From: a virus
Taxonomy: Duplodnaviria; Caudoviricetes
DNA: 30,359 nt
Strand: one strand, 5' to 3'
Virus record (IMG/VR): IMGVR_UViG_3300020043_003704
Coordinates: 1 to 30,359 of that record
Positions within the stretch are counted from its first letter, which is position 1; each line of letters starts with the position of its first letter. Positions 1-13,330 of this stretch are shown here, in pieces. Both the position numbers and the translations under genes were made by a program. Below the pieces are notes generated by a model. It did not search any database and was not told where the DNA came from. It was given only the letters and a program-made list of their open reading frames with translations.

Positions 1-121
1 TTCTCCAAAATTTCCTCCAAATTCAGTCCCTCCCTCGCTGCTTTGGCCTCCAAATGCAATAGGGTATTGCTCAACAATTCCTTGTTTAAAGTCCAAAAAA
101 AAAGCATCGAGCCAACCACAA
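1..121. repeat. Terminal direct repeat, left copy (circular assembly overlap)
   Basis: 1-121 is identical to 30239-30359, and a reading frame runs through the junction. Confidence 0.97.
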
Positions 122-4171: not shown

Positions 4172-4411
4172 TTATTTAAATTTTAGTTTTGTCTCGTGGT
4201 GTATAATTTCGCGGTCGAGGTAGTGCATCGCTTTGCGTAGATCGTCAAGGTGTGCGCCTTTGCGTCTCGCTCTTACAATATATTTGACTGCATTTCCCTC
4301 GTTAAAGTTAAGGTCGTAGTCCTTAATGATGTCGATGACATCGTATTGCTGCTGGTTGTCGTAGTGTTTTGGTGTCATAGTCAATGCAGTTTTAGTTAAA
4401 ATCAGTTTCAA
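4172..4411 (-). CDS. DUF3310 / SaV-like protein
   Basis: PKHY...DVIDII...FNEGNAVKYIVRARRKG...DLRKAMHYL; start may be ATG 4378. Confidence 0.85.
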   Translation of the reverse strand: MKLILTKTALTMTPKHYDNQQQYDVIDIIKDYDLNFNEGNAVKYIVRARRKGAHLDDLRKAMHYLDREIIHHETKLKFK

Positions 4412-4646
4412 AGTCAGTCCAAATCTTTACAATCGCCCCTGCGGCTTTCAGTTCCTCGATGCGCAGCTCTTGAATTGGCGATAGCTTCCCGCCTTCGCGT
4501 TTAACTTCTATAAACATCGCCTTGCCGTATTTGATTGCCAGCAGGTCGGGGATGCCGTTGGTCGATGTCTTAATCAATTTCGTGACATACCAACCCCGCT
4601 CAATAAGTTTGCGTTTAATTTTCGTTTGTATCTGCTGCTCATTCAT
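4392..4646 (-). CDS. VRR-NUC domain nuclease (Holliday-junction resolvase-like)
   Basis: E..IQ, GIPDL, FIEVK, GKLSPIQ motifs; start ATG 4646. Confidence 0.88.
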   Translation of the reverse strand: MNEQQIQTKIKRKLIERGWYVTKLIKTSTNGIPDLLAIKYGKAMFIEVKREGGKLSPIQELRIEELKAAGAIVKIWTDFETDFN

Positions 4647-4659
4647 TTGTTTAAAAACA

Positions 4660-4727
4660 AACACCCCTCAATTGACCGCCAAGTGCAAAAGAAGGGTGTT
4701 GTTAGTTGTGTGTTTTCTCTTGGCGGT
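4660..4727 (-). promoter_or_regulatory. Putative structured leader RNA (loop-pairing element C)
   Basis: 5' ACCGCCAAG (4719-4727) is complementary to loop CUUGGCGGU (4675-4683) of hairpin AACACCCUUC/GAGGGGUGUU (4660-4700); TATATTTG at 4731-4738 lies just upstream. Confidence 0.6.
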
Positions 4728-4750
4728 GGTCAAATATACAAATTTATTTA

Positions 4751-5281
4751 TTATAGATATTTATTTTCAATATTATTTTTAAATTCAAATTCAATTCGCT
4801 TTTTATATGCGTCGATTTCATTTTCAAAAGATCCTAAATAAATTTGATTTCCATTAAAAATAATAGAAGCCTGCCATTTGTTTCTATTTTTTCTATAACA
4901 AACACCAGTATATTTACTTGATTTATTTAAAATCGATTTAGCGTGACAACAATTTTCTCTATTTGAAACCCATTCTAAATTTTCAATATTATTATTTAAT
5001 TTGTTGCCATCAATATGATTTATAAAAGGCAATTTTTTAGGATTTTCAATAAAACTAAAAGCGATCAATCGATGAACTTTAAAAGTTTTTCTCACATCTT
5101 CCTTTTTTAAATCAACTACATAATATCCTGTTTTAGATATATGCGTTTTTAACATTTTTTCTTTTAATGTTTTTTTAAACCCCGAGTGATTTTTTGCATG
5201 TCTACTTAAAGATTTAACATTTCCAAAATTGCTGATTTGATAAAAATTTTCAAAGCCAGCAATGTTTTCCCAAATTTCCAT
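4751..5281 (-). CDS. NUMOD4-HNH-AP2 homing endonuclease
   Basis: NUMOD4 EIWENIAGFENFYQISNFGNVKS; HNH VHRLIA...NHIDGNKLNNNIENLEWVS..EN; AP2 SKYTGV...KWQASI...YLGSFENEIDA. Visibly AT-rich; start ATG 5281. Confidence 0.92.
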   Translation of the reverse strand: MEIWENIAGFENFYQISNFGNVKSLSRHAKNHSGFKKTLKEKMLKTHISKTGYYVVDLKKEDVRKTFKVHRLIAFSFIENPKKLPFINHIDGNKLNNNIENLEWVSNRENCCHAKSILNKSSKYTGVCYRKNRNKWQASIIFNGNQIYLGSFENEIDAYKKRIEFEFKNNIENKYL

Positions 5282-5287
5282 AAACGT

Positions 5288-5366
5288 AAAAACCAGCACA
5301 TCAAAAGGTCGTCGTCTTTATCAATGCTGGAATTTTATAAAATTGTTATTGTAGCGACGACTCTAC
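5288..5366 (-). promoter_or_regulatory. Putative structured leader RNA (kissing-loop element B)
   Basis: Hairpin GUAG-AGUCGUCG-CUAC (5351-5366) and hairpin CCAGCA...AAAG-ACGACGAC-CUUU...UGCUGG (5293-5330); loops complementary over 7 nt. Confidence 0.65.
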
Positions 5367-6601
5367 TTTGACAAAGATAAGCAATTTTTTCTAAAGATTG
5401 CAAGTGTAAAGTCTTTTTTTTCAAGTACTGTTTTGTAAATATCATACTCAATTCCACCCTTAGAAAATACCCAAAACACCTCGTTATTTAAACGCTCTTT
5501 TGTAGTTAACCTCGCACGGCTTTGCCAGTAACTCGTTGCACTAAAATCGATGTTATAGTAAACGAGATACTTTGCGTTTTTTAAACTAACGCCCTCGCGT
5601 CCGCTTACTATTTGCAAAGCAATATTTTTATCGGTTGAGTCAAACTCCTCGACTGAATTTGTCAAGTAATCGGCTCCAAATACTTGCAGCAGCGCGTCCC
5701 ATTCGGCCTTAAATTTATAAAAGATTGCGATTTTTTCGCCTTGAAACTTCTCCTTTATAAACTTAGCCTTTGAGTCGTCAATTACTTTAGACGTGCCATC
5801 TTCGAATTTGCACGTACCGCTTGAAAGTTGGTGAACCTTGCCCATCATTTTTACACCAGAATCCCCTAAAATGACTTGTCCTTGTCCGTTGCGAACGATT
5901 AAATCCTTTTTAAGGCGTCGAATGACCTCGTAAGTGATTGGCTGCATCTCGCACTCCAGCACCATCTCGTTGACGCTTGTCGTAAAGCCTGCCTCCTTTT
6001 GTGTGAAAGTTATAATAAACGGTCGTGTACTTCTTCGTACTTGATTCTCTTTTGCGTTTGAGTAGTCCTTGACAACGCCATAGCCTAAACGTTTCTCTTT
6101 AATGTCAACGTACTCAGCGGCCCACTTATAAAAATTCGCATACTTATTATAAGGCGAGTGATCACTTACCCAAAATTGATGAAACCACTGCGAGTACGAT
6201 TCAGGCGTTGGCGTTCCGCTTAGGAATATCATAGGCAGTTTACTGAAACGCTTTTTAAATTCTTTGGCGGTTGCGTTGGGTTTAGGGAATGCACCGTATT
6301 TGTGATGCTCGTCTGAAATTACGATGTCGAAATCATTGTCGAGTATTTTATGCAGGCTTTCCGTGTTTATTATTACAATCTCAAAGTCAAATCCAAAATT
6401 AAAGTGATCACGCTCAATGCTTGAAACCGCCTTTTTTTTAGTTACAAATAAAACTTTTTTAGCACCAAATAGCCTACAAGTTTCCAAAGCAATTGCAGTT
6501 TTACCAATTCTAACTTCGCAGCAATAATAAACTATTTTTTTATTTCGTAAAATCTCAACGCCTTCCGTTGCTAATTTTAACTGGTAGTCGCGTAAAATCA
6601 T
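5363..6601 (-). CDS. Superfamily 2 (SNF2-like) helicase
   Basis: LRDYQ Q-motif, VRIGKT, DEHH, LSGTP, SGREGVSL, QSRAR. Confidence 0.9.
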   Translation of the reverse strand: MILRDYQLKLATEGVEILRNKKIVYYCCEVRIGKTAIALETCRLFGAKKVLFVTKKKAVSSIERDHFNFGFDFEIVIINTESLHKILDNDFDIVISDEHHKYGAFPKPNATAKEFKKRFSKLPMIFLSGTPTPESYSQWFHQFWVSDHSPYNKYANFYKWAAEYVDIKEKRLGYGVVKDYSNAKENQVRRSTRPFIITFTQKEAGFTTSVNEMVLECEMQPITYEVIRRLKKDLIVRNGQGQVILGDSGVKMMGKVHQLSSGTCKFEDGTSKVIDDSKAKFIKEKFQGEKIAIFYKFKAEWDALLQVFGADYLTNSVEEFDSTDKNIALQIVSGREGVSLKNAKYLVYYNIDFSATSYWQSRARLTTKERLNNEVFWVFSKGGIEYDIYKTVLEKKDFTLAIFRKNCLSLSK

Positions 6602-7460: not shown

Positions 7461-7497
7461 CCTGGGTTGATTTTCCGACGTCACTAAATGGATTCAT
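7222..7497 (-). CDS. Coiled-coil hypothetical protein (overlapping frame B)
   Basis: ATG 7497 follows an A-rich tract and overlaps the primase end by 14 nt; isoleucine heptads. Confidence 0.55.
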   Translation of the reverse strand: MNPFSDVGKSTQDEREIERIEIEIVKVNERISKLRQKIQDLVKAKQQKEINPSEKERGIDEVRAAIEQARGNISWQNNRSRQARTISERNF

Positions 7498-9763
7498 TTT
7501 TTAACTCTTTGATGTATTTATAAATCATTTGAAGTGATACACCCAACTGCTCCGAAACCTCTTTTTTGTTTAGGTCGGGATTTGCCTCAAATAAAATTTG
7601 GAATTTCTCCTTTGTCGATTTGTTTGAGTTTGATTTTATTACCGTTCTAATCTCAGCCACTTCAATCGAGTCAATTTTTACCTTCTTAGCCATAGCAATA
7701 AAATACTTTGACAACTTCTCAGCCTTTAAAATTGAGTCCTTTGATATCTCCTCAAAGTTGTAACTATCCAATCCAATAGCGTTAAACGTATGGAGCAAAA
7801 GTGCAAAGCGGGGAATGTATGATTTTTGCTTTGGCAACATTGATTTCATGTACTCATTTTCATCGTTTGAATTTTGAATATTTGTAATCTCGTTAAAAAT
7901 ACGCTTCCATTCAATTTTTGCCTCGGCTCCAAATCGAACTATTTTAGGCTCAATATTTCCGTCTTCGTCCCTTCTTATCATTCGATGCTTAACGGCCTCA
8001 AAAAAAGCAATTATAGTATCGCTATACCATTGGATTGTATTGCTATCCATTTCCCTATCATTATACTGCTCAATCGCTAACTCGGGAAACGATAAAAGCA
8101 TCCTATCCATAAATCCGTTGTCTTTGTTATCGTCAGTATAAAACGAGTTAAATATAGTCGGTTGTATTCCTCCAAGTACTGGGATAAGCGGCTTCGCTAC
8201 AAATGATCCTGCGCGAGTCATTCGGTTGAGGTTTACGGATTTCCCGCTCCAGGTTGAAAGCCAAAACTCGAGGTCGCTTCCTGCCTTATATTTGTTCATA
8301 TCCTTAAACCAACCCGCAAGCTCATCTTTGAAAACGCCAACCGATATATCGTTTTGTTGGTGCAAATCAACCAAAGCCTCAATTGTTATATCGTTGGCAA
8401 TAAATTGTTTTTTAGTTGGTTTCATTACCTCGGGATATTCCTCTTGCTCCTTCTTTGATAAGTTAGAATAAAACTCATATTTCTCGTATTCCTTAATAAA
8501 ATTCGCAATCTCTCGGTTGTTAATTTTCTCGATAGGGAATATTATATTTGAGATTGAAGGAGTTTTACCTATACCCGCTTTTCCAACAATCGCAACCCAA
8601 ATTGTCGCAAGCTCACGCCATCCTTTTTTTACCTCAATTTGCATCGCGTTGCCAATACTTAATGAAATCATCCAAAGAAGTGAGCAACCCATATAATCGA
8701 TGGAGCTATCCAAGGTCTCGGAGCATTCCAAAATATATGATTGAATTGGCTTCGGAAAAATATCAATTGGAAACTCGAGATCGGATTTATTAATTACAAT
8801 CTTTTCTTTCGGCTCGAGTGCTTTATTGACTATTCGAGATCCGTAACCTTCGGAGTATAATTTAGACGCCGCTGCTTTCATATCATCATGATGATATTTT
8901 CGAGCGTAGGCAGTAAACGGAGTATAAAGAGTTTCGTGTTTATATTGGCTGCCTGTTGAAAATAAATACATAAAGCCAGTATCTTTAAAAACATAACCTG
9001 AATGTGGAGAAGTTGCTCCATGGCGTTTGATTACATATTTTTTTGATAGGTTACCAACGATTGTAAATTCATCGCCTATGATTGAAAATATATCGTTGCG
9101 CTGGTTGAAGTCATCCCAAGTCGTTAAATCGGATTCAATATAAATTTTCTTATCTCGTTTGATTTCAATCGGCTGCTCATCGATATAATTATACATCTTT
9201 GAGAATGTCATTATAATCTCACGGTCATCGTCGGAAATGTAATCGATTTGATGGTAGTTCTTTTTAGAGACTTTATTCTCGGGATAGGTAAAAATATACC
9301 CGCCAATTCCGCGAGTTTCCAAAACGGCTTCCGTGTGGCCTTTAAGTCGCGCCAATTTAATATTTCCCTGAACTCGCTTTGATTTGTAAAGAATATGATA
9401 ACCCGCGTTTTTAGTTTTGTAGATTACAACCTTATCGTCAAAGTCGAGAATATTGTCCCTAAGGTAACCAGTGTACTCATCCCAAAAGTCCTTTTGCTCT
9501 TTTGCAGTTGAAAAAACTTTCAAATCAATATCGACACATTCGAGGTCATCAAAGCCTGTAACGATTCCAAAATTGGTAGTTGCAGGTATTTCGGTTTTAT
9601 CCTTCCTAAAAATACCGCCTTTATAATTGTAATGCCGCATGAATTTTTCATATTCAAGCCGCTCGGTTTGTTGTGCCTTCCATGGGAAATTTGGCACCTT
9701 GTCATCGCTAACCGTTATCAGCGAAAAGTTATCGTAAAATAACTTGAGTTTGTTTTGATCCAT
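7484..9763 (-). CDS. Prim-Pol primase fused to DUF3987/YfjI-like helicase with C-terminal HTH
   Basis: NFGIVTG...CVDID, GYHILY, ETRGIGGY (Prim-Pol); FPIDIFP, VGKAGIGKTP, FKDEL, GGIQP, NGFMDR (DUF3987); LNKKEVSEQLGVSLQMIYKY (HTH). Confidence 0.9.
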   Translation of the reverse strand: MDQNKLKLFYDNFSLITVSDDKVPNFPWKAQQTERLEYEKFMRHYNYKGGIFRKDKTEIPATTNFGIVTGFDDLECVDIDLKVFSTAKEQKDFWDEYTGYLRDNILDFDDKVVIYKTKNAGYHILYKSKRVQGNIKLARLKGHTEAVLETRGIGGYIFTYPENKVSKKNYHQIDYISDDDREIIMTFSKMYNYIDEQPIEIKRDKKIYIESDLTTWDDFNQRNDIFSIIGDEFTIVGNLSKKYVIKRHGATSPHSGYVFKDTGFMYLFSTGSQYKHETLYTPFTAYARKYHHDDMKAAASKLYSEGYGSRIVNKALEPKEKIVINKSDLEFPIDIFPKPIQSYILECSETLDSSIDYMGCSLLWMISLSIGNAMQIEVKKGWRELATIWVAIVGKAGIGKTPSISNIIFPIEKINNREIANFIKEYEKYEFYSNLSKKEQEEYPEVMKPTKKQFIANDITIEALVDLHQQNDISVGVFKDELAGWFKDMNKYKAGSDLEFWLSTWSGKSVNLNRMTRAGSFVAKPLIPVLGGIQPTIFNSFYTDDNKDNGFMDRMLLSFPELAIEQYNDREMDSNTIQWYSDTIIAFFEAVKHRMIRRDEDGNIEPKIVRFGAEAKIEWKRIFNEITNIQNSNDENEYMKSMLPKQKSYIPRFALLLHTFNAIGLDSYNFEEISKDSILKAEKLSKYFIAMAKKVKIDSIEVAEIRTVIKSNSNKSTKEKFQILFEANPDLNKKEVSEQLGVSLQMIYKYIKELKNESI

Positions 9764-10014
9764 TATTTTGTTGGTATTTGGTTTCTATTTAAAATGCGGT
9801 AAACATACTGAATTGATACGTTTTGTTTTTCGGCTATTTCTTTTATCGTGTAAGTTCTAAATAATTCTACGTATTCAGAGTCACTGATAAAACCTTTTTT
9901 AACTACAACGCCGTGCTTTTTTAAAACTCTATACACGTACTGGATAGAAACATTTTTAATTTTAGAGATTTCATCTACTGAGTGCTGCTCAAATAATTTT
10001 AAATATTCATTCAT
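9763..10014 (-). CDS. Tandem helix-turn-helix protein
   Basis: Two repeats, each containing NVSIQYVYR; start reassigned to ATG 10014; TAATG coupling to the primase. Confidence 0.75.
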   Translation of the reverse strand: MNEYLKLFEQHSVDEISKIKNVSIQYVYRVLKKHGVVVKKGFISDSEYVELFRTYTIKEIAEKQNVSIQYVYRILNRNQIPTK

Positions 10015-10027
10015 ATTATTAAAAAAT

Positions 10028-10117
10028 AAAATCCCTTGAGTTTCGTTGTGCAGGCAACTACTCCTCAAAGGATTTTCATTAAAATTCTTATATTATATTG
10101 TAGCCTGCATTACAATA
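10028..10117 (-). promoter_or_regulatory. Putative structured leader RNA (kissing-loop element A)
   Basis: Hairpin UAUUGUA-AUGCAGGC-UACAAUA (10096-10117) and long hairpin 10028-10076 with loop CCUGCA; loops complementary. Confidence 0.7.
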
Positions 10118-10122
10118 CGCAG

Positions 10123-10152
10123 CAAATATAACTATTTATTTGATATTTTAAA
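10123..10152 (-). promoter_or_regulatory. Bacteroidota sigmaA-type promoter
   Basis: TATATTTG at 10123-10130 matches TAnnTTTG; the -33 element is weak. Confidence 0.6.
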
Positions 10153-10174
10153 CTAATTTTAAATTATTTTTTTT

Positions 10175-10416
10175 CTTTAAACCATTTTAAAATATTTTAA
10201 ACCAAAAGTTTAAAGCTTTTTGTTGATTTTATTGGGCTGAGATACGTTTTTTTAAACCATTCAACCAAGTTTAAAACTTTTTTAGTAAAAAAAAATAAAT
10301 TAAAAATAAAAAAAATAAATACAATTATTAAAATTTTAAACTTTAAAGGTTTAAAGTGTTGATTTTTATATGTTTACGCGTGTTTTTAGTTTAAAATATT
10401 TTAAAATGGTTTAAAG
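10175..10416. repeat. AT-rich region with a perfect 28-bp inverted repeat; putative replication origin
   Basis: CTTTAAACCATTTTAAAATATTTTAAAC at 10175-10202 and its reverse complement at 10389-10416; many TTTAAA(C) units; largest non-coding gap, next to the primase operon. Confidence 0.7.
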
Positions 10417-10419
10417 CAT

Positions 10420-10446
10420 AAAAAAAGCGATCCGAAGACCGCTTTT
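10420..10446 (-). terminator. Intrinsic terminator after the SSB-like gene
   Basis: GCGGUC-UUCG-GAUCGC followed by U7. Confidence 0.85.
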
Positions 10447-10469
10447 CCAACTATTTAACCAAATCAAAA

Positions 10470-11144
10470 TCAAAAATCCAAATCTTCTGCATCAACATCA
10501 GCCTCAATTTCGGCCACTACTGGCTCCGATTTTGTGAGGTAACTTTTTAAATAAGCCTCTAAAGTGTTAAACGCTTCGTCGGCAAGGTCGGCCTCGGCTC
10601 CATCAAGTGAGCAAAGATAACCGAATACTGGTGTTGTGTATTTAACGCTGCCTTTTTTAGCCTCGTCAAATCCAACTACGCTTACCCACTCGTCAACCAA
10701 ACGGCTTTTACTCTTTGCGGTAAAATCGCCCCATGTTTGACAGGCTGCCCCTTTGAGTTGAATGTTTGCAATCTCGCCACCCTCGAGCATTATATAAATA
10801 CTCTTAACGTAGTGACCTCCTGCGGCCTTTGCTTTCTCTTTGATGTCTTTATAAAGACCTCGCGCAATCTCATTGCCTTTGAACTGCTTTACAATCATTT
10901 CATCCTTTGAGATATATTTTACCTCGTTGGAATAAATCCCGCTTTCGGTTGCATCGTTCCAACCTTTGACGGTGTGCAGTTCGTCGAGAACTAAGAATTT
11001 AAACGGAAGCTCAACGCTCACGTTTGTTTTGTTCTCTTTGTCGTAGTAAGCAAACGTTTTTTCGTTTGATTTCCACTCGAAAAATTTTGTTGCTGGGTTT
11101 GTTGTTGGCTGCGAGAATGCAGCGCGTCTGTTTGAATTACTCAT
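10470..11144 (-). CDS. Putative single-stranded DNA-binding protein
   Basis: Aromatic, beta-rich body; acidic tail ending ...EADVDAEDLDF; own promoter and terminator; located in the replication module. Confidence 0.6.
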   Translation of the reverse strand: MSNSNRRAAFSQPTTNPATKFFEWKSNEKTFAYYDKENKTNVSVELPFKFLVLDELHTVKGWNDATESGIYSNEVKYISKDEMIVKQFKGNEIARGLYKDIKEKAKAAGGHYVKSIYIMLEGGEIANIQLKGAACQTWGDFTAKSKSRLVDEWVSVVGFDEAKKGSVKYTTPVFGYLCSLDGAEADLADEAFNTLEAYLKSYLTKSEPVVAEIEADVDAEDLDF

Positions 11145-11210
11145 AATATTATTGTTTTTTGTGGCACGAAATGAAGCAGCTCGAGCCTTGCTGCGGTTAT
11201 TATGATAAGG

Positions 11211-11241
11211 CTAAATTACTGATTTATATTTATCTGACAAA
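11211..11241 (-). promoter_or_regulatory. Bacteroidota sigmaA-type promoter for the SSB-like gene
   Basis: TTTG (11238-11241)-N19-TAATTTAG (11211-11218); one mismatch to TAnnTTTG. Confidence 0.65.
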
Positions 11242-11342
11242 ATTTTTTTATATAAATCGTTAACTCGTTCCGAATTTACTCCTCGATTGTAGTAAAATCG
11301 CATTACTCTTTTGATTCTCGTTAAAGGTGTGATATTAGCCAT
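11211..11342 (-). CDS. Small basic hypothetical protein (43 aa)
   Basis: Not in the ORF track: MANITPLTRIKRVMRFYYNRGVNSERVNDLYKKILSDKYKSVI. Confidence 0.6.
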   Translation of the reverse strand: MANITPLTRIKRVMRFYYNRGVNSERVNDLYKKILSDKYKSVI

Positions 11343-11431
11343 CCTATTGCGGTTATGATTATTAAAAATGCAGCCGCCTCAATCGCAGCTCGCGTCACAA
11401 AGATAAGCTCCCTCTTGTTTTTTGCTTTCAT
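11321..11431 (-). CDS. Small membrane peptide (36 aa)
   Basis: Not in the ORF track: MKAKNKRELIFVTRAAIEAAAFLIIITAIGWLISHL. Confidence 0.55.
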   Translation of the reverse strand: MKAKNKRELIFVTRAAIEAAAFLIIITAIGWLISHL

Positions 11432-11804
11432 ATTCATTAATTAAATTAATAATTTGATTCATTAACTCCTCGTCCTCGATTGATTTGGCCTTTTTGACCA
11501 TTATAAAATAGGGTGAGTATTGGTTGATTAGTTGCAGGCGTAACTCCTCCAGGTCGGGTCTTCTATATCGCACATCATTATCGTATATTTTTACCATATA
11601 CAATACTGTTGCGTGATCGTATGGCCTTTTTTTGCGTATAATCTCCCGAATTTCAACCGATTTGTATCTTAAATCAACTCGTAAAACATAGCAAAATAAT
11701 GCTCGAGCGTCAACTATTTCAAGAGTCCTGCGCTTCTCAAAGACATTTACTTTTGTAACGTCTTTAATAATTTTAGCTATTTCAATAGGGCGACTATATT
11801 TCAT
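11379..11804 (-). CDS. DnaA C-terminal (domain IV)-like DNA-binding protein
   Basis: RRTLEIVDARALFCYVLR...EI...DHATVLY resembles the DnaA domain IV RDHTTV signature; no AAA+ domain; start ATG 11804. Confidence 0.75.
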   Translation of the reverse strand: MKYSRPIEIAKIIKDVTKVNVFEKRRTLEIVDARALFCYVLRVDLRYKSVEIREIIRKKRPYDHATVLYMVKIYDNDVRYRRPDLEELRLQLINQYSPYFIMVKKAKSIEDEELMNQIINLINEYESKKQEGAYLCDASCD

Positions 11805-12246: not shown

Positions 12247-12696
12247 TTAAAATTTTAATGTTATACTTGATTTGCGTGGCGTTGTTGAGACTTTTGGCAC
12301 CTCGTTACCATACGCGTCGAAAATTGTTTGCATTTGTTTTAAAGCCAATTTAAGCAGCTCAACGCGCTGATCTAAATCGTTTTTTAATTGGCAGTAAATT
12401 GGATCCTCCGAGTAGTTTATAGTTTCGCCTCCGTTTACTGGTGTAAACTCGACACCGTAGCAAGTCATTTTTTCTTCGGGCAAGTGCTTACGCATTTCCG
12501 CGTCGGCTGAGTTAACTACCTCTTTAAGTCGGCAAATGTTCGCCATAAACATGTGCTTGTCGACGTCTCCGCTCTCGATTACATTGTCGACCATTCGCTT
12601 ACCTGTAAGTATTGCGTCTTTTTTTGTAAACGATGGCTCGTACATCGTTATAAGTTGCTCTGAATTTTCAAGGAATAGTTTTGCGTTTGCTCCCAT
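12247..12696 (-). CDS. Hypothetical protein
   Basis: 149-aa ORF in the early operon. Confidence 0.75.
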   Translation of the reverse strand: MGANAKLFLENSEQLITMYEPSFTKKDAILTGKRMVDNVIESGDVDKHMFMANICRLKEVVNSADAEMRKHLPEEKMTCYGVEFTPVNGGETINYSEDPIYCQLKNDLDQRVELLKLALKQMQTIFDAYGNEVPKVSTTPRKSSITLKF

Positions 12697-12697
12697 T

Positions 12698-12823
12698 TTA
12701 ATTTAATTTTAAGTATGCGTTAGTCATTTTTTTGTGATCGGAATAGTAAACCGATTTCACGGTTTTTTTCATCCATTTGTCGAATTTTTTAGCCTCTTTT
12801 AAGTTTATTTGTTTTTGCTCCAT
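12698..12823 (-). CDS. Small hypothetical protein (41 aa)
   Basis: Not in the ORF track: MEQKQINLKEAKKFDKWMKKTVKSVYYSDHKKMTNAYLKLN; fills the gap exactly. Confidence 0.6.
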   Translation of the reverse strand: MEQKQINLKEAKKFDKWMKKTVKSVYYSDHKKMTNAYLKLN

Positions 12824-12957: not shown

Positions 12958-13128
12958 TTATTTGTGTCTAAATGGTAACTCCTCAACGCGCCAAACGCGC
13001 TTACAAACTATTGAGGACTGATTGAAAATAAGTATTGCCTCAGCTATGCTGCTGGCTTCAATGTCGATGTCGTAATCGTAGCACTCATCGTACTGCTCGG
13101 TGTAATAATATAGTCTATAAGTTCTCAT
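12958..13128 (-). CDS. Hypothetical protein
   Basis: Start ATG 13128 (MRTYRLYYY). Confidence 0.6.
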   Translation of the reverse strand: MRTYRLYYYTEQYDECYDYDIDIEASSIAEAILIFNQSSIVCKRVWRVEELPFRHK

Positions 13129-13330
13129 ACATTCGGGCCAATCTAAGGCCGATATTAAAGTTAGCAATCATTCGTTGTTTGTTCCAGTCTTGCACATCCC
13201 AACCAAATAAACGCTCGTTGCGTTCGATTCGATTTTTGTGGTCGTTAAAGCGGCGGTCTGATTCTTTAAACGCCTCAAGTATTTTGATGGCGCGTTCGTG
13301 TTTTTTGATTTCAAGTTCTAAATTTTCCAT
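13115..13330 (-). CDS. Hypothetical protein
   Basis: Start ATG 13330 (MENLELEI), TAATG-coupled to the upstream peptide. Confidence 0.65.
   Translation of the reverse strand: MENLELEIKKHERAIKILEAFKESDRRFNDHKNRIERNERLFGWDVQDWNKQRMIANFNIGLRLARMYENL

Follow-up and report, generated by a model that had tools for sequence, protein, structure and literature searches.

Element A is a leader RNA of about 90 bases in which a 5' hairpin (P1) and a terminator-like hairpin (P2) have complementary loops, an architecture confirmed here by folding and in homologs. Leaders of this kind form a widespread class in Bacteroidota phages. As the best explanation we favour, with somewhat better than even confidence, a ligand-free antitermination by this tethered loop-loop pair, or kiss, by analogy with the guanidine-IV riboswitch. 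Element A lies on the minus strand of the window, that is, the whole 30,359-base virus record analysed here, which has direct terminal repeats and carries almost all of its genes on that strand.

The first-pass annotation of this DNA had described for element A a first hairpin, an A/U spacer, a second hairpin with a loop complementary to the first, a U-run and an ATG; all of these parts are present by sequence and folding (Table 1). TAnnTTTG is the consensus of the Bacteroidota housekeeping promoter element, and we take TATATTTG to be the -7 box of this type. The box stands at the same place in every full-length family A homolog that has an exact upstream complement, and the early and middle promoters of the window share one common box type. 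Folded alone, P2 reaches -19.1 kcal/mol (z -4.4); it does not include the start codon, an ATG at 10014. The internal loop of P2 (10059-10063 / 10041-10044) is a candidate loop E/bulged-G-like motif, and in P2 of element B the internal loop (5320-5322 / 5301-5303) holds what we presume to be tandem G-A-like pairs; either loop could stiffen P2 or bind protein. That these loops are invariant among homologs (GAGUA/GAAA in A, tandem GA in B) follows from the search patterns and does not count as evidence.

Table 1. Leader elements and neighbouring features, in window coordinates
Feature	Position	Strand	Details
Element A, promoter box TATATTTG	10123..10130	-	presumed Bacteroidota-type -7 box
Element A, P1 hairpin	10095..10118	-	stem GUAUUGUA/UACAAUAU, 8 bp including one G-U; 8-nt loop AUGCAGGC; from fold
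Element A, key UGCAGG(C)	10103..10109	-	in P1 loop; from sequence and homologs
Element A, tether	10077..10094	-	unstructured, A/U, 18-19 nt; from fold
Element A, P2 hairpin	10028..10076	-	13 bp, GAGUA/GAAA 5x4 internal loop, 4-bp apical stem
Element A, anti-key (G)CCUGCA	10049..10055	-	P2 apical loop; exact complement of key; CCUGCA at 10054-10049
Element A, U-rich run	10021..10031	-	after last G-C pairs of P2
Tandem HTH protein, 83 aa	9763..10014	-	Pfam HTH_23/HTH_28; optional first gene behind element A
Prim-Pol/DUF3987 primase-helicase	7484..9763	-	constant cargo of element A
Short canonical terminator	10421..10448	-	closes operon upstream of element A
Element B	5279..5379	-	box 5379-5372, P1 5366-5351, P2 5330-5293, U-run 5292-5288, ATG 5281
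Element B, key GUCGUCG	5355..5361	-	in 4-bp P1; anti-key CGACGAC 5314-5308
NUMOD4-HNH-AP2 homing endonuclease	4751..5281	-	behind element B
Element C	4644..4738	-	box 4738-4731, no P1, P2 ~4701-4658, ATG 4646
Element C, key ACCGCCAAG	4719..4727	-	directly behind box; anti-key CUUGGCGGU 4683-4675
VRR-NUC nuclease	4392..4646	-	behind element C; relatives have other genes after C

The same layout had been claimed for positions 5288-5366 and 4660-4727. Both of these elements, B and C, are real, but C, which has no P1, carries its key at the 5' end and is a pseudoknot, not a kiss between two hairpins. A detector that combines the box, a key, a complementary anti-key in a hairpin and a U-run gave four hits among the 51 boxes of the window, which are the three elements (C has two overlapping boxes). 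On 200 block-wise dinucleotide shuffles, the same detector gave no hit in 185, one in 14 and two in one; these 16 hits correspond to 0.08 per genome, and three were never reached. There is no cross-pairing among the three keys of the window. In element B, the 5' strand of P1 contains the helicase stop codon (5363-5365). A ribosome terminating there on upstream transcripts would cover the key, and such transcripts could thereby be made to halt at P2; this overlap is not general in family B. Behind the C leaders of four loci (L002, L008, L009 and L032), a stretch resembling a tRNA 5' end is found instead of a start codon. The idea of tRNAs behind these leaders was rejected, as ARAGORN calls none.

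The pattern for family A, the homologs of element A, was written on the flanks of P2 with the loop left free, and it matched 35 distinct sequences. An exact complement of the loop is present upstream, in the P1 loop, in 27 of them; their anti-keys are CCACCA (23 sequences), CUGCCA (two) and CCUGCA (two), matched by the keys UGGUGG, UGGCAG and UGCAGG, respectively, giving three clear loop variants. The other eight matches comprise two that are cut off upstream, one (L259) with a 7-nt match recognized by eye, and five unrelated chance matches. With three near-duplicates excluded, 24 of the 27 sequences and L259 were aligned. In this alignment of 25 sequences, 90.5% of the cells are paired, and two-sided changes occur in 15 of the 30 pairs and in all four helices, including three of six pairs in the kiss helix and five of seven in P1, with compensatory changes in both stems of P2. 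None of 500 shuffles, which take no account of relatedness among the sequences, reaches this covariation. Within the family, the P1 stem is less conserved than the key. Among these homologs the replication operon keeps the leader at its start, although its first gene varies. By blastn, no homolog of element A was found among cultured phages.

Family B, also defined by a pattern on the P2 flanks only, comprises 93 distinct sequences, of which 92 extend far enough upstream for comparison, and has eight loop sequences. The exact complement of the loop is found upstream in 91 of the 92, and the remaining one has a single G-U. In the alignment (n=44), 98.6% of all cells and 100% of those in the kiss helix are paired; two-sided changes affect 12 of 22 pairs overall, and three of the seven kiss pairs change in a compensatory manner. 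At least four invariant T residues follow right behind the stem in all 44 aligned sequences, the T-run being outside the search pattern. The first-pass annotation had spoken of pairing that covaries within one genome. Three unrelated elements do not amount to strict covariation, but the homolog alignments do show it, and the check for loop-loop covariation that had been proposed thus turned out positive in both families, bearing out the view of a modular cis-acting RNA with loop-loop pairing.

The genes behind family B encode NUMOD4-HNH and GIY-YIG nucleases and a 79-aa protein without known function. At 84% identity, the family is found in 34 records of cultured Flavobacterium phages (Muminvirus, tooticki6-1 among them), which the available text of PMC7077304 presents as virulent isolates with cultured hosts. 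These phages carry a second scaffold besides family B, and their primase is annotated as a different type from that of the window. In tooticki6-1, which grows on Flavobacterium sp. LMO6, elements lie at about 11590-11689 and 12625-12730. When a covariance-type model of family B was applied, element A was the best non-family match (E ~0.01, from six sources and with rough E-values). The model found nothing in 151 host genomes; among 401 genomes from the G001 genus, four carried the family B pattern (control 2), and one of these cases, on the short contig L535, was inspected and is real. Thus, family B was not found as a chromosomal element in the host genomes searched. Two copies of B look to be decaying (L002 10296-10407 and L447 12276-12387); one has a damaged promoter box, and the other has a broken P1 and no ORF behind it.

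The class as a whole emerges from a de novo scan in which loci were oriented by their replication genes. In loci L001-L218 and the window, 115 distinct elements lie on the gene strand and six on the opposite one. All loci together yielded 227 elements, of which 223 were kept, with 92 key strings (a count inflated by variable trimming) and about 85-89 scaffold groups, as judged crudely by the six bases before the anti-key. From key end to anti-key start the median is 42 nt (IQR 40-45; 89 groups; search window 25-75), and from anti-key end to P2 end, taken as the last G-C pair, it is 15 nt (IQR 14-18); box to stem end spans 83 nt, and the tether has a median of 19.5 nt (IQR 17-22). P1 has at least 4 bp in 91 of 134 elements, and forms devoid of P1 carry a longer key at the 5' end, a median of 5 nt behind the box. 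The unconstrained fold of P2 leaves 87% of the anti-key unpaired, and pairing in the apical stem reaches 100% in families A and B. The ATG follows the last G-C pair at a median of 19 nt (range 9 to >30; 11-14 nt in most of family B), and for 17 of 214 elements no ORF of at least 40 aa starts within 45 nt, some of these being truncated loci, short ORFs or mis-set boundaries.

A family-blind sample, drawn from part of the collection by the box and a terminator-like ending only (110 distinct sequences), contains keys of at least 7 nt in 7 of 54 hairpin-forming cases, compared with 1.3% in swapped controls. Further elements precede replication genes in tooticki6-1 and in Polaribacter phage P12002L. 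The latter (L530) also has, at 13090-13184, a key and a hairpin with a 7-nt anti-key before an HNH gene of the structural region, without a U-run. The first 30 kb of Cellulophaga phi19:1, of L525 and of L526 yielded none, with a detector prone to false negatives, as it overlooked two elements of the window (B and C) and element B in tooticki6-1. Among 41 representative proteins encoded behind the class, a domain scan identified nucleases, primases, initiators, helicases, a nucleotide kinase and a few others, with 15 giving no match; homing endonucleases are among the genes behind class elements. For the window, domain hits bear out that all three leaders stand in front of genes whose products act on DNA.

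That element A precedes a DNA-binding gene holds in the window, where the HTH gene follows it; the tie, however, is to the start of the primase operon, and the HTH gene is optional, as in L008 and L016 it is missing and the leader directly adjoins the same primase. The HTH gene was met only together with the UGCAGG key (three sequences: the window, L146 and L061) and is absent from relatives whose primase is identical. The canonical terminator that closes the upstream operon is kept in L146, L008, L016, L061 and L003, and the primase operon therefore depends on the promoter of element A and on passage through P2. Between this terminator and the promoter lies an AT-rich region (10130-10420) with repeated GGTTTAAA motifs and a 41-nt inverted repeat of 93% (10167-10207 / 10384-10424), which is likely a replication origin; in L003, whose primase type differs, other repeats take its place. 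Elsewhere on the minus strand (11144-11405), a promoter-like box at 11405 is accompanied by a short hairpin, and the strings ATAACCGCA and GAGCTGC recur some 160-200 nt on, ahead of a PHROG 6706 gene; in L472, the counterpart of this gene stands behind a kissing leader instead. Relatives of the window primase come from Flavobacterium, Psychroflexus and other Bacteroidota MAG contigs (four loci) and number in the hundreds in IMG/VR. Among cultured phages, searches by primase and by helicase revealed no close relative of the window.

In the explanation that we favour, the starting point is the complementarity between a key of 6-10 nt near the predicted transcript start and the apical loop of the terminator-like P2, some 42 nt further on. 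P2 would be an intrinsic terminator, and the kiss, forming during transcription, would keep its base open and let RNA polymerase read into the replication or nuclease genes. About 14-15 nt of nascent RNA lie within RNA polymerase; with ~15 nt from anti-key to stem end, the anti-key should emerge just as the 3' arm of P2 completes, and the kiss would have to win within the U-run, its sole time window. The tether of ~19 nt, stretched along a stacked P1-kiss-P2 rod, would strain the basal pairs; assuming 2.8 A per bp and 6 A per nt, the rod/tether ratio has a median of 0.68. As there is no conserved ligand pocket, the read-through fraction would be set kinetically by polymerase speed, pausing, Mg and temperature. 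The leader could thus be a self-contained valve that doses the middle genes, those of DNA metabolism, and that a mobile endonuclease cassette may take along between unrelated phages. The presence of family B in Muminvirus, with its different primase type, argues for a device independent of phage factors.

One feature of intrinsic terminators, a G-C closed stem directly before the U-run, is present in A, B and family B. P2 of A, B and C all escaped a simple terminator scan, whose rules for loop and stem leave out bulged stems. Runs rich in T are generally found ahead of start codons in these phages, so the U-run could be there without serving as a terminator tail, and the P12002L candidate devoid of a U-run counts against the favoured explanation. 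Tether scaling, in which a longer P2 stem would go with a longer tether, was not seen (spacer versus 5' arm, rho -0.27, partly a boundary artefact), and for total distance on the 3' arm the slope is 0.31 (p 0.14). It also counts against the favoured explanation that a valve without input is an unusual design for a geometry so conserved. The direction of the effect, with the kiss as ON, is drawn by analogy only, and somewhat better than even is our confidence in the explanation as a whole.

The same pairing could instead act in trans: a terminated short RNA, or a P2 cut free in the tether, would occupy the keys of new transcripts and shut the operon. We regard this feedback as unlikely, although it survives best among the alternatives. 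It, too, would be self-contained, the number of key strings would suit it, and it has precedents in P4 CI RNA and Gifsy IsrK, which act in trans according to the available text of PMC4825925. The lack of cross-pairing within the window fits as well, as does the finding that the window and L008 have different keys (UGCAGG and UGGCAG) in front of a 100% identical primase. However, a second key copy downstream occurs at background level (3 of 89, versus 2.3 by chance), antisense boxes are not in excess (3 of 85, versus 4.4 expected), and keys are not hypervariable, 23 of 27 family A sequences sharing one while the P1 stems vary. Moreover, the L402 contig holds two B elements with the same key, which makes one of seven co-resident B pairs with identical keys where 2.0 would be expected. 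In this small sample, then, the orthogonal loop codes of the first-pass annotation are not upheld as a selected property, though a weak avoidance of shared keys may have escaped notice. A second comparison, in which none of 106 co-resident pairs had at least 7 cross-complementary bases, against 4.8% of random pairs, was set aside, its control being confounded by orthologs and the L402 pair having been missed. In the trans version, expression would come as a burst once infection begins, and later phages would be excluded if they shared the key, an equally doubtful prospect. With no better chance, cis and trans action might combine into an RNA-only timer and immunity lock, the cis kiss opening the genes at entry and short RNA with the same key accumulating and closing them later, both in that phage and in any subsequent phage that shares the key; loop letters would then be addressable exclusion codes among Bacteroidota phages and selfish nucleases.

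Almost as unlikely is a kiss that stabilizes the terminator, or caps the RNA 5' end against decay, and holds toxic nucleases and initiators to low, leak-through expression. The kiss is compatible with both hairpins, as shown by the unpaired anti-key and the paired apical stem, and P1-less leaders of the C type carry the key at the very 5' end. On the other hand, P1 already shields the 5' end in most elements, the sole characterized RNA with such a topology is an ON switch, and an essential primase sits behind element A. We give little credence to a phage or host protein that would recognize the kissing complex by its shape and serve as a shared switch from early to middle expression. Rop recognizes the kissing complex of ColE1, and a fixed geometry with free sequence, cargo made up of DNA-metabolism genes and one box for early and middle promoters would all agree with such a reader; yet no candidate protein has emerged, and family B crosses unrelated phage genera with its sequence intact.

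Both attenuation and translational control had been proposed at the outset, and the data favour the former. A kiss that changes ribosome access to the A/U-rich initiation region behind P2 would be in keeping with the closeness of the ATG, but the start codon is never in P2, its distance varies widely, and the 17 elements not followed by an ORF also speak against this reading, which we consider quite improbable. Chance or DNA-level structure, conceivable in AT-rich DNA and with element A adjoining the origin-like repeats, is very improbable indeed given the shuffle control, the strand asymmetry, the compensatory and G-U changes and the fixed distance from the promoter box.

These results define a large class of cis-regulatory RNAs in phages that is not tied to sequence and that catalogues built on sequence profiles miss because only shape and spacing are conserved. 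Antitermination by the tethered kiss would make the guanidine-IV mechanism, in which a terminator-loop kiss opposes termination, a general ligand-free device, and the class offers dozens of natural variants for testing the still unproven 'stretched linker' model. It may also explain the staging or dosing of replication genes in small lytic Bacteroidota phages that have a single promoter type, as well as the self-limitation of homing endonucleases. Since family B and a second scaffold occur in cultured Muminvirus phages of cultured Flavobacterium hosts, these proposals are directly testable. Keys that do not cross-pair could be ready parts for RNA-programmable terminators in Bacteroidota.

Rfam gave no match in the window at E<=1, none on the strand of element A at E<=10 and none at the gathering threshold in 12 homolog loci, in line with the expectation of no described family. 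Several known systems share part of the design. In T-even phages, hairpins hide the ribosome site of homing endonuclease genes (I-TevI/II/III, mobE), and a late promoter inside bypasses them. There, as here, RNA structure limits expression of a selfish nuclease; the present leaders differ in having the promoter upstream of the whole structure, the ATG outside P2 and a loop-loop pair. The ZTP riboswitch and other ON switches that set a pseudoknot against a terminator are ligand-bound, have a conserved core and form the terminator by strand displacement. They resemble the phage leaders in that a co-transcriptional, long-linker pseudoknot opposes termination, and differ in their ligand, conserved core and strand-displacement terminator. 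Pseudoknot ON switches of the ZTP type are named in the available text of PMC11611296.

P4 CI/seqA-seqC, P1 C4 and Gifsy-1 IsrK are likewise promoter-proximal short phage RNAs that combine loop pairing with a terminator and control replication or toxic genes (PMC4825925; for C4, PMC2864571; available text of each). They have target copies on both sides and act in trans (PMC4825925), in contrast to the single cis key here, and no match to the Rfam C4 or IsrK models was obtained. Closer to family B is DNAVirus_8377 of Fremin 2023 (PMC10690425), which in the available tables has 105 nt, 88 mostly freshwater sequences, a Bacteroidetes host, 'yes' for an RNIE terminator and HNH_3/NUMOD4/AP2/GIY-YIG genes downstream. 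It is an anonymous table entry for which the available files give no pseudoknot, class or mechanism (PMC10690425). Family B, compared by table description only, may be this motif, catalogued without interpretation; six short motifs were not present in the Fremin 2023 files searched (PMC10690425). Nothing similar appears in the main text of Weinberg 2017 (PMC5737381) and Weinberg 2010, the 2017 motifs being otherwise covered via Rfam, and a search of literature outside subscription papers returned no description of the class.

The family had been called unrecognized, which holds in so far as it is absent from Rfam, but a close architectural precedent had been missed, the guanidine-IV riboswitch (GGAM-1/mepA). 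According to the available text of PMC7736828 and PMC11611296, the loop of its 5' hairpin kisses the terminator loop over a linker and promotes read-through, for which stretching of the linker has been proposed. The terminator stem stays in the structure, and position in the 5' UTR and length are similar. The phage leaders differ in having no conserved ligand nucleotides, their 92 key strings being flanked by no conserved base (85 groups); in preceding nucleases, primases, initiators, helicases and unknowns rather than sugE or guanidine-related genes; in residing in phages rather than the chromosome; and in lacking an Rfam match and including a P1-less subtype. Taken together, the class is undescribed, and it is guanidine-IV-like in its proposed working while being no member of guanidine-IV.
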